A stretch of 64,000 nucleotides of DNA from an uncultured Clostridia bacterium (GTDB lineage: Bacteria; Bacillota; Clostridia; Christensenellales; CAG-314): contig CANQGO010000004.1 in the NCBI GenBank assembly GCA_947623225.1, positions 5,894 to 69,893 of the forward strand. Direction: 5' to 3'. The stretch's first letter is position 1, and each line of letters starts with the position of its first letter. This document shows positions 36,001 to 39,000 of this stretch, piece by piece. The position numbers were made by a program.

Positions 36001-39000
36001 TGCTGCATCGCTCCGCAAGTCGAGCATGTGAGATCGTGCGTATCTTCCAGCATCCCGGACGGAACGTAGTTGTGCGTATGCGCTTCAGCCTGCGGCAGAT
36101 CCACGACAGTATTGCCGAAGGTGAAAGCCAACGTGTCCACTCCTCTATCTGTGTCCAGCATCACCAGCGACAGTTTTTCCAACTCGGTGCCGTTGAATGT
36201 CACTTCAACATTGTATGAGTCATTGCTATCGCCGAATATGATATCCAGCGGCTTATTATTTATTTTATACACACCGCTTGCGCTGTCATATTCCGCCCAT
36301 TCATACACGTCGCCGATCACGCTGAGCATATTGGCATATACCATACATGCCGAAATGATGGTAGAACCCTCCAACGAGCCAATGCTGTACTTGATCTGCT
36401 TGCCTTCGTAGTTCTGACCGTATGCATACATATGATACGCGTCGTCATACACCAACGTATCCGACGTGAATGTGTTGTCATTCACATGCAATGCGTGTGC
36501 GGTGAGTTGCAACTTCGTTTTCTGATCGGGATAGACGCTCCGATACATTTCCAAATCGTAGTTGAGGATGCCTTCCAATCCGAACGCTTCTTGCCACTGT
36601 TCTTCCGTGACCTGACGGGATACGGTGCCGGTGCGGGCGTATCCGCATACAGAGCACTTGCCGTCGGTGCCGAAGGTGTGCGGTTGCTTCTCTACTATCT
36701 TGTCGGTATGGTCCTGACAAAGCACTTTGTGCCAATGGTACATGCTGCTCGTGGTATAGTATTGCGCTTGATCATGTTGGTGATCGAGTATATACTCCAC
36801 CACCGTATTGTCAATATCCGTGATGGTCTGCGTCTCCCCGTCCACGTCGGATATGACTGTGTATATGCGATCGCCTACGAAGCGGAAGGACAAACCGGCA
36901 GCCTCATAGTCATAAGCCTGAGTCTCTTCGTTCCATACAAGGTCATCGAAACTCTCTATGTCAGTAAGCATGCCCGCCATGCTCTGCAATATTCCCATCG
37001 CATCCTCTCTGTAAAACGGATCATCGGTCATGGAGAACTGCTTCATATAGAGCACGATCATCGAATTGCCGTTCTCGCCGTACTTCTCGTATACTTCATT
37101 CAGCTCGCCGTTGTATTCTACGCTTATGTTATGAAGCAGATCGCCGTCGACATTAAATAACTCATTGAACTCGGCGTCCTCTGTATACTTCAGAATAGCG
37201 GTGAAGTTGTCCGACTTGGCGAAAGCCTCGCATGCCGCAGTCCACTGTTCGGCGGTGAGTTGGGTATTGTACTTGATCTTGCTCTCATCCATATATCCGC
37301 ATACCGTGCAACGGCCGTAGTCGTTGAGCGTATGCGTTGCCAGATCGCTCTTTTCCTGTGTATGCTCGCAGGTAGCCGCGTGCCAATGGTTTGTCTCGTC
37401 GTTCCACCAACTCTGAGTATAGGTGTGTGTATGCGGCACGTCGGGCTGCGGAGCCGTGCTCTTCTCGTAGCCGCACACCGTGCACTTGCCGTTGCTGTCA
37501 AAGTCGTGCTCTGCCTTGTCCGCCACCGCGTCATCGTGACCGCAAGTAGCCGCGTGCCAGTGGCTCGTTGCGTCCTTGGTCCACTCTGTCGCATAGGTAT
37601 GTTCGTGGTCTTTCTTACATGCCGACAGTGCCGCTACGGACAGCACCATCACCACAGCCAGAAACATAGCAGTCAATTTTCTGAATTTGTGTGTCATCTT
37701 TACCTCCTGTATATAAAGCTACGATCTTACGCGCGTAGCCTTTAGTAATTATACCCCCCCCCCGTGCCGAAATGTAAAGTAAATAAAACAAAAATATAAT
37801 TGTACAAATCATAAAAAAACGAGGCGTAAGTGCCTCGTTTTCGTTTGTATTATTGTATATACGATCTTGTTATCTTGCATGATTCCAAGCGGGACGGGAA
37901 GGCTCGAAGCCGTCTGCGTAGTCCCATGTACCGCGGATCAACATGCCCGTGGTCGCGTCCACGTCACACTCGAATTCCAGACCGTTCCATTGGAATTCCA
38001 CTTCGTACACTTTACCGCCGAATTCCTCTTCCAACTCTATCTCCCAGTCGGATGTCTCCTCGAGCAGGATATTGCCGAACTGGCCTATAAGTTGGTTGAG
38101 CAGATATGTCTTGATCTGATCCTCGGTGAGCAGAGTGCCGCTGCTCTGCGAGGGCTGCTTGTGACCGCCGAAGTATCCGTCGTCGTAATCCCAATCCCAG
38201 TCATCGTCTTTCCAATCGTTCCATTCGTCGTCGAACCAATCGTGGAAGGGAGGATACTGCTCTGCTGTCTTTTCGGAAACGTCTCTGCTCAATATCTTGC
38301 GGTTGAGCGCGTCAATCGTGTACGTATATGTAATATCTCCTATGCTGTAGGTGACGGTGTACACTATGATGGTGTTGCCCTGCTCATCCGTCTGAGCGGC
38401 AGAGGTGACGCGGTAACCGCTCACCGGAGTCAGTGCGGACAGTTCCCCCTGTTCTATAAGGAAGTCCTTGATCTCACTGCGATCCATGTATGCGTCCGCT
38501 GCGGTGTCGAACTTCTGCTCGAAACTATACAGCACTGCACCGTATACGTCTATCTCGTACTCAAAGTAGGTATCGTTGTAGCTGAACCACAGCGAATAGA
38601 CTATGTTTTGTCCCCAGAATCTGCAACGCTCGCTGAACACCTCTACGGTAGTATCGTCTGCCGGTACTCCTGCCAATGTCTTGGCAAGCGTCTTGATCTC
38701 TTCTTCGGTCTTTGCCGTCTGAGTGGTATCGGGCGTATACTGCGCCGTCTCGCACTCGAAGGATATGATCTCGCCGCTTATGGCACCTATCTCGAATTCG
38801 TACTCGTTGGTGCCGTAGCAGAACTCGACTTCCCACACCATGATGCCGTCGTCAAAGTCCAACTTGGCTTTGAGTCCCAGAACGTTCTCTTCCGTAAGAC
38901 CGCTCTGCACTCTGCCGAAGGCGATCTCAAGCGCACGCTCTCTTCCGTAGGACTGCGTACTTGCGGAACCGCTCTGGGTGATATCCTCGCCTGTAGTATC

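Follow-up and report, generated by a model that had tools for sequence, protein, structure and literature searches.

The promoter of a lipoprotein gene in an uncultured gut Clostridia bacterium carries an uninterrupted run of ten G's between its -35 and -10 boxes. We examined this tract (G10) in a 64-kb stretch of contig CANQGO010000004.1, hereafter the window, in which the lipoprotein locus is read on the minus strand. Our interpretation, to which we assign a probability of roughly 0.78, is that the G10 is a hypermutable repeat in the spacer of a sigma-A promoter and makes lipoprotein expression a slippage-prone switch. Slipped-strand mispairing at replication would add G's to the tract or remove them, and each gain or loss would alter both the distance and the rotation between the two boxes. 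Expression of the lipoprotein would then switch stochastically and reversibly, with a peak at G8, where the spacer measures 17 nucleotides (nt), and a steep fall on either side. The assembled G10, with its 19-nt spacer, would represent a low or OFF state. From the sequence, we infer that the promoter is used, that the tract varies within the population and that its length controls transcription.

A homopolymer tract in a near-consensus promoter

An earlier reading of the window, made from its sequence alone (the sequence-only reading), had placed a G10 between TTTACA and TATAAT at 37748-37778, with a 19-nt spacer that G8 would reduce to 17 nt. It had also described a 50-nt leader containing AGGAGG and an ATG at 37697. 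Both descriptions were borne out when we re-read the sequence (Table 1). The two hexamers match the consensus at 11 of 12 positions, and with G8 they would do so at 17-nt spacing. The tract occupies the -10-proximal half of the spacer in this near-consensus sigma-A promoter, and its length falls within the range regarded as hypermutable for G/C homopolymers (about 8 nt or more). A standard scan with spacers of 16-18 nt revealed no second promoter-like site between the upstream terminator and the ATG. Scanning the leader and promoter region against Rfam returned only sub-threshold chance matches, and folding of the leader gave a hairpin that was not significant (z = -1.0).

Table 1. Features of the lipoprotein locus and of the second G10 tract, in window coordinates (RBS, ribosome-binding site; TSS, transcription start site; ORF, open reading frame; aa, amino acids).
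Feature	Position	Strand	Remarks
-35 hexamer TTTACA	37778-37773	-	5/6 match to TTGACA; read from sequence
Spacer, non-repeat part TTTCGGCAC, 9 nt	37772-37764	-	Read from sequence
G10 homopolymer GGGGGGGGGG	37763-37754	-	Proposed hypermutable element; read from sequence
-10 hexamer TATAAT	37753-37748	-	6/6 consensus match; read from sequence
Leader, 50 nt	37747-37698	-	From -10 box to start codon; read from sequence
RBS AGGAGG	37708-37703	-	5 nt before ATG
Start codon ATG of lipoprotein gene	37697	-	Read from sequence
AT-rich UP-element-like stretch	37779..37810	-	Directly upstream of -35; inserted cassette begins here
Predicted TSS	~37740-37742	-	From the usual ~7 nt distance to the -10 box
Lipoprotein ORF, 838 aa	35181-37697	-	Signal peptide and lipobox MTHKFRKLTAMFLAVVMVLSVAALSAC, Cys27
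Intrinsic terminator of anti-sigma gene	37842-37815	-	11-bp stem and T run; inverted repeat I2; upstream boundary of cassette
Terminator of lipoprotein gene	35155-35135	-	Terminator-like hairpin; downstream end of cassette
Second G10	12521-12530	-	Inside giant lipoprotein gene 11518-16894

The G10 in the lipoprotein promoter is a strong outlier and not a compositional accident. Runs of G or C in the window extend up to a single run of six, beyond which there are only two G10 tracts, at 12521-12530 and 37754-37763, both with their G's on the minus (gene) strand. Dinucleotide shuffles predicted 0.07 G10 matches against the two observed. As a comparison we used 1.29 Mb of DNA from 80 related genomes that had not been chosen for tracts. 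In this DNA, G/C runs reach 8 or more only six times and never exceed 9, and at least two of the six sit in TTGACA..TATAAT spacers.

Recurrence of the promoter design

We scanned a collection with one genome per species (596 Gb) and a collection of metagenome contigs for the pattern TTKACA-N7-13-G9-TATA. The genome scan yielded at least 119 loci with at least 122 sites, and the metagenome scan at least 120 loci. Together, the scans returned more than 330 such promoters, mostly from gut metagenome-assembled genomes (MAGs). Among the 122 listed genome-scan sites, the last two bases of the -10 box, which the pattern left free, were AT or CT in 103 (14% expected), and the -35 box was TTGACA in 117. 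The 25 nt upstream of the -35 box averaged 70% AT in these sites. Though up to 13 nt were allowed before the tract, the pre-tract length in the listed sites was 7-10 nt, with a mode of 9 (47 of 122), as in the window promoter.

The listed matches came overwhelmingly from gut and rumen MAGs assigned to Clostridia, Christensenellaceae, Borkfalkia, Gallimonas, Oscillospiraceae and "Bacilli"/Tenericutes/Anaeroplasma, with Saccharibacteria, Treponema and Selenomonadales as further groups. Cultured strains among the listed genome-scan matches were S. pneumoniae (L013), S. infantis (L058) and Streptobacillus notomytis (L063, two sites). The genes downstream of these promoters are enriched for exported products. 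Signal-peptide-like N-termini were found in 70% of downstream ORFs when the tract abuts the -10 box (p = 2e-25) and in 62% when it abuts the -35 box (p = 2e-7), compared to 30% of background ORFs from the same loci. A lipobox was present in 23% of downstream ORFs and in 6% of the background.

The position and strand of the tract were compared using further patterns (loci L003-L121, L212-L301 and L302-L308), for each of which about 2 sites are expected by chance (estimated from how many bases a pattern specifies and how large the collection is). A G9 abutting the -10 box of an exact TTGACA/TATAAT promoter occurred at 77 or more sites. A complete scan for C9 in the same place found 7, so that the C tract is at least 10-fold rarer than the G tract at the -10-abutting position. 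A complete scan for G9 abutting the -35 box gave 91 sites in 90 loci, again mostly in gut MAGs and including the cultured Anaerocaecibacter muris CLA-AA-M11. A lipoprotein gene of A. muris has a G12 tract with a 17-nt spacer (L265 6805-6833), and another gene of this strain has G13 with 21 nt (L286 3363-3395).

Spacer lengths and the mode of control

Of 62 promoters with exact TTGACA-N-TATAAT boxes in the window and its relatives, 50 have a 17-nt spacer. Among promoters of the scan loci that lack long runs, 26 of 53 show this length. Tract-bearing promoters in the same loci have 17 nt in 21 of 253 cases with a mode of 19 (p = 3e-12), a shortage that partly follows from the requirement for G9 or longer and may partly be a real OFF-bias. 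The assembled spacers of tract-bearing promoters show modes at 19, 18 and 16 nt. The 19-nt spacer of the window promoter is a typical assembled state that lies off the lineage optimum, and judging by its length this state is probably low or OFF.

The tract might tune or switch the promoter by means other than spacing alone, through the -14 G of an extended -10 element, through DNA structure or melting, or through protein binding. We consider this unlikely, while recognizing that several results point toward it. The strand asymmetry at one and the same position (77 or more sites for G9, 7 for C9) is of this kind, as is the clustering of assembled spacers at 18-19 nt and not at 17 nt. Of the 91 promoters whose tract adjoins the -35 box, 42 keep a true TGn motif before the -10 box, which indicates that the extended -10 element matters in these organisms. 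A mechanism other than spacing has also been argued for tprL of Treponema pallidum, whose tract overlaps the -10 region (PMC7864442). Control through spacing accounts better for tracts being found at either end of the spacer, with 90 loci in which they abut the -35 box, and for the constrained pre-tract length, with which 17 nt is reached at G7-G10. The spacer of ordinary promoters in the lineage is narrowly set at 17 nt, and G>C skew of the coding strand could explain part of the asymmetry. The asymmetry may stem from a -14 G that mimics an extended -10 element, from G skew of the coding or leading strand, or from a mechanistic role of the tract.

Variation in tract length

Sites were clustered by their flanks, which groups the same locus from independent assemblies, and 140-nt flanks were compared. 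Tract length differed in 24 of 47 pairs with at least 95% identical flanks (the flanks of these pairs differ at 1.6% of sites) and in 6 of 19 pairs with identical flanks (Table 2). States below G9 are invisible to the scan, and the comparison of pairs therefore understates the variation. At the locus recovered from seven assemblies (L341, L359, L397, L404, L407, L410 and L416), about 120 nt of flanking sequence is nearly invariant. The 4-5 bases 5' of the G tract vary between samples at this locus (gactagta, gactcgta, gactgaca and gaccggta).

Table 2. Tract lengths at the same locus in different assemblies.
Assemblies	Tract lengths (G)
Seven assemblies (L341 and others)	10, 11, 11, 10, 10, 11, 10
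Five assemblies (L310 and others)	10, 9, 9, 9, 10
Four assemblies with 100% identical flanks (L335 and others)	9, 9, 10, 9
L355 / L356 / L361	10, 10, 12
L309 / L323	11, 9
S. infantis isolate (L058) / near-identical metagenome contig (L347)	10, 9
L370, L378, L406	11 in all three (invariant set)

Tract length also differs between paralogues within single genomes. In multigene families that encode small secreted proteins, the copies have one conserved promoter in common, with tracts of differing length. Six copies in MAG CAKVHY have G12, 14, 14, 15, 15 and 16 (CAKVHY01, a Hadza Clostridia MAG; loci L233, L254, L279, L281, L284 and L287), and one of these copies has a 17-nt spacer while the other five have 19-21 nt. 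Paralogues in MAG CAKOLD have G11, 13, 13 and 14 (CAKOLD01 loci L212, L227, L228 and L235), and those in MAG CANQYX have G10, 10 and 11 (CANQYX01 loci L213, L219 and L250). Paralogues with G9 and G10 were found in L105 and in L041/L072. Length differences between close genomes are seen at both orthologous and analogous loci.

Poly-G runs can arise as sequencing or assembly artefacts, for example from two-colour chemistry or from miscalled homopolymers, and both poly-G artefacts and homopolymer length errors do occur in Illumina-based MAGs. Many of the supporting contigs also have low coverage, such as L002 at 2.6x. We nevertheless find an artefactual origin of the tract scarcely credible. The G10 lies within a 64-kb contig and is placed exactly between two consensus boxes. 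Its layout is found again in independent projects and in cultured isolates of A. muris, S. pneumoniae, S. infantis and Streptobacillus. Artefactual runs should show no preferred direction with respect to promoters, yet G tracts are more than 10 times as frequent as C tracts. Length differences of 2 to 4 G's, moreover, are larger than typical consensus errors.

The window locus and its nearest orthologue

The nearest orthologue of the lipoprotein, P0002 (897 aa, 42% identity), comes from another species and is encoded between the Tex and GlyRS genes. Its promoter (L001) consists of TTGACA, AATGCCTGC (9 nt), G10 and TATACT, with the tract abutting the -10 box. Non-coding sequence around this promoter is unrelated to that of the window, despite the common layout of 9 nt and G10. 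The retention of G10 in two genes whose products are 42% identical, while other non-coding sequence diverged, points to selection on the tract. A second independent assembly with an identical P0002 protein (L002) has G11 instead of G10, and over 4146 aligned nt the two assemblies differ only by one single-nucleotide polymorphism and by tract length. The comparison of tracts in related MAGs that the sequence-only reading had proposed was informative for the orthologue (G10/G11) and for analogous loci, which vary, but it turned up no near-identical sequence for the window locus itself.

Several observations weigh against a length-controlled switch at this locus. Exact-flank scans with a variable gap, run on genome and metagenome contigs, found no second copy of the locus, and a look-up of the exact 838-aa sequence returned no record. 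The 90% protein cluster of the lipoprotein has a single member. With L002 covered at 2.6x, the difference between G10 and G11 in the orthologue is by itself suggestive only, and a homopolymer consensus error can make two assemblies differ by one base. Because the scans asked for at least G9, they miss tracts of G8 and shorter, and their spacer statistics are biased upward. A pure spacing model does not predict the G-over-C asymmetry. Finally, the off-optimum 19-nt spacer would also be compatible with a promoter that may be decaying or inactive.

This last point leads to the alternative that the tract is a fixed spacer or the remnant of a decaying promoter, with the gene constitutively weak or silent and no switching. 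The failure of flank scans and protein look-up to produce a variant of the window locus fits such a state, as do the spacer of 19 nt here versus 17 nt in the lineage and the invariance of some same-locus sets (G11 in L370, L378 and L406). A decaying promoter would be harder to reconcile with the retention of G10 in both the window gene and its 42%-identical orthologue. It also sits poorly with tract length differing in about half of near-identical locus pairs, and with an intact ORF in which the His and Cys ligands are conserved. We regard a fixed or decaying tract as improbable and favor the slippage-prone switch.

The lipoprotein product

The N-terminus of the 838-aa product has a signal peptide and the lipobox LSAC (…VAALSAC), as expected of a surface-exposed or secreted protein. 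The ORF is intact and encodes 39 Cys and 50 His residues in about ten modules that end in CxxCG. AlphaFold2 predicts two central alpha/beta domains (mean pLDDT, the predicted local distance difference test, of 71.6). The His and Cys residues of the modules are invariant across ten homologues. Sequence searches of Pfam, NCBIfam and the PDB with the 838-aa protein gave no match. A Foldseek search with the AlphaFold2 model gave a weak LolA/RseB-like match (template modelling score 0.33), which we treat as a lead only. The lipoprotein is presumably metal-binding and surface-exposed.

The His/Cys module spans about 45 aa (H-x-H … W … HWH..C … G.C.xCG) and has no entry in Pfam or NCBIfam. More than 1500 proteins of Clostridia and Treponema contain it, homologues P0002-P0120 among them, and fusions to FGE-sulfatase (PF03781), pectate lyase (PF00544) or Listeria-Bacteroides repeat domains are frequent. 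No tracts were found upstream of the more distant family members P0110, P0108 and P0113, which occur in many contigs and all lie within operons. A promoter tract is therefore no general feature of this protein family.

Genomic context of the lipoprotein cassette

The window is ordinary chromosome, with genes for PGK, iPGM, DnaX, PolA and RNase R and a G+C content of about 53%. Relatives of its RsmI protein (40449-41228) at 72-85% identity all come from uncultured gut Clostridia MAGs, in agreement with the gut-Firmicute-like genome recognized by the sequence-only reading. Their hosts are rabbit, mouse, ruminant, chicken and human, and their labels include Christensenellaceae and Candidatus Fimimonas. 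The organism is a gut Clostridia (Christensenellales-like) MAG lineage. RsmI at 69-78% identity was also found in three MAGs labeled 'Corallococcus sp.', a myxobacterium (L131, L138 and L155). The two examined for synteny, L131 and L138, have the sigma/anti-sigma/orf211 order of this gut Clostridia lineage, and the taxonomic label is almost certainly wrong.

Directly upstream of the lipoprotein gene lie genes for an extracytoplasmic function (ECF) sigma factor and an RsgI/PepSY anti-sigma factor. The gene order RsmI, ECF sigma, RsgI/PepSY anti-sigma, orf211 is kept in relatives. The lipoprotein gene was missing from all 80 RsmI-anchored syntenic loci of these relatives, which precluded a direct comparison but supplied an unbiased baseline. 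The slot between the anti-sigma gene and orf211 ranges in relatives from 375 nt up to 4.4 kb of other genes. Alignment of the junctions showed conservation of both the anti-sigma terminator and the orf211 promoter, with an insertion of about 2.7 kb separating them in the window. The alignment stops after the conserved terminator and resumes at the orf211 promoter region past 35135. The insert (about 35130-37810) comprises the AT-rich stretch, the G10 promoter, the gene and its own terminator. This cassette is most likely horizontally placed and monocistronic, the latter because terminators bracket the gene. The slot resembles a hot spot for accessory genes; in one relative (L126, 5808-10268) it holds about 4.4 kb of unrelated genes, and the region compared in another (L123) is 12700-13090.

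The terminator that had been proposed to isolate the promoter from the upstream genes is real, with its 11-bp stem and T run (37842-37815), and is kept in relatives that lack the lipoprotein gene, such as L123. The promoter is consequently isolated from the sigma/anti-sigma genes. The adjoining ECF sigma and anti-sigma pair nonetheless raises the possibility that this sigma factor drives the lipoprotein gene, or that an invertible promoter does so, and that the sigma-A-like boxes are fortuitous. We searched upstream of the gene for an ECF-type motif (AAC-N16-17-CGT) and did not find one, and k-mers common to the lipoprotein promoter region and the region upstream of the sigma gene were at chance level. 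The gene is not co-conserved with the sigma/anti-sigma pair, which is kept in relatives without it, and the conserved terminator stands between the two. No inverted repeats flank the promoter, as an invertible element would require; the only repeats are the terminator hairpin and unrelated ones in coding regions. Control by the ECF factor or by inversion is very improbable in the light of these results.

A second G10 tract in a coding region

The sequence-only reading had noted a coding-region G10 in another lipoprotein gene, and this tract is real and lies at 12521-12530. The run stands between an ORF of 1466 aa and one of 333 aa, the latter in the -1 frame. Slippage to G9 or G12 would yield one ORF of 1791 or 1792 aa, while G8, G10 and G11 truncate the ORF at 1458-1466 aa, so that tract length toggles the reading frame. 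The second G10 is thereby a candidate for translational phase variation, in which the C-terminal 333 aa would be switched, and a putative companion contingency locus to the promoter tract. The neighboring paralogues do not span the junction at the tract and neither support nor refute a fused ORF. The gene is the last of three tandem paralogues for giant lipoproteins of 1140, 1220 and 1466+333 aa (4259-16894, minus strand). All three carry N-terminal InlB-B-repeat-like (Flg_new_2) domains and have no counterpart in the 80 related loci examined. One candidate transcriptional and one candidate translational switch, both in genes for predicted surface lipoproteins, are the signature of a multi-locus contingency repertoire.

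Relation to known phase-variable systems

Phase variation through simple sequence repeats is textbook knowledge for Neisseria, Haemophilus, Campylobacter, Helicobacter, Treponema and mycoplasmas. The vlp lipoprotein genes of Mycoplasma hyorhinis reportedly have a poly-A tract in the promoter spacer (Citti and Wise, 1995). As in the CAKVHY, CAKOLD and CANQYX MAG families, the vlp multigene families combine a common promoter with differing tract lengths. The vlp tract is poly-A in a wall-less pathogen, whereas the window tract is poly-G and its gene is single-copy in the window.

Closer parallels come from poly-G spacers. In Neisseria meningitidis porA, a poly-G tract between the -35 and -10 boxes sets the spacer and with it expression, and 17 nt is optimal (PMC3639595, PMC7864442). 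Both porA and the window gene have a poly-G tract in the sigma-70-type spacer of a surface-protein gene. The host of porA is a Gram-negative pathogen, and the window belongs to an uncultured gut Clostridia commensal whose lipoprotein has no assigned function; switching has been shown experimentally for porA and is proposed here for the window locus. In T. pallidum tp0126, which encodes an OmpW homologue, a poly-G tract likewise lies between the two boxes, and transcription was best at 17 nt (PMC7864442). Surface-protein promoters of T. pallidum (tp0126 and tpr genes) carry poly-G tracts of about 8-11 nt, which vary within isolates (PMC7864442). The T. pallidum genome has about 53% GC, like the window, and Treponema MAGs are also among the listed scan matches. 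T. pallidum differs in being a spirochaete pathogen, and its tract variation was shown by fragment analysis. The window locus most likely belongs to this porA / tp0126 type of promoter-spacer phase variation, an assignment with comparative support and a function that we infer.

Intragenic poly-G contingency loci are known from Campylobacter, Helicobacter and Neisseria (PMC6321876, PMC8355987). The second G10 resembles them in lying within a surface-protein ORF, in that one-base slippage would toggle between full-length and truncated products, and in being one of more than one such locus in its genome. It differs in its position at about 82% of the ORF, where it would switch the C-terminal 333 aa and not the whole protein ON or OFF. 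A Firmicute precedent for an intergenic homopolymer indel is found in Streptococcus pyogenes M28, in which a one-nt change at Spy1336/R28-Spy1337 alters surface-protein transcript levels (PMC7098570). That tract has another base and position, belongs to a pathogen and is not part of a stereotyped -35/-10 spacer design.

The mechanism is already known, and it is the apparent breadth of its use among non-pathogenic, uncultured gut lineages that is undescribed in the literature we searched. This literature contained no description of such promoters in gut Clostridia, an absence that is not proof of absence elsewhere. On a broader view, which we hold tentatively and at slightly less than even odds, poly-G spacer switches would form a widespread and stereotyped contingency system of commensals. 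The system would serve large sets of secreted proteins and lipoproteins, multigene families included, in Christensenellales-like Clostridia, RF39/Anaeroplasma-like Bacilli, Saccharibacteria and gut Treponema. It would require G's specifically on the non-template strand, which would imply a recognition role beyond spacing, and populations would be mostly off-optimum. Such breadth among commensals bears on a question left open by a 2025 review (PMC11868660).

The locus and its several hundred look-alikes suggest that uncultured commensal Firmicutes and other gut lineages diversify their surface proteins by poly-G switching. Phage, immunoglobulin A or niche variation are likely pressures. Polishing of MAG assemblies should not remove homopolymer indels in promoters as if they were errors. 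Anaerocaecibacter muris CLA-AA-M11, a cultured relative with such promoters, makes the idea testable, and the other cultured strains that carry the design could likewise be used for experiments. Many surface proteins in these taxa may be expressed heterogeneously within one strain.

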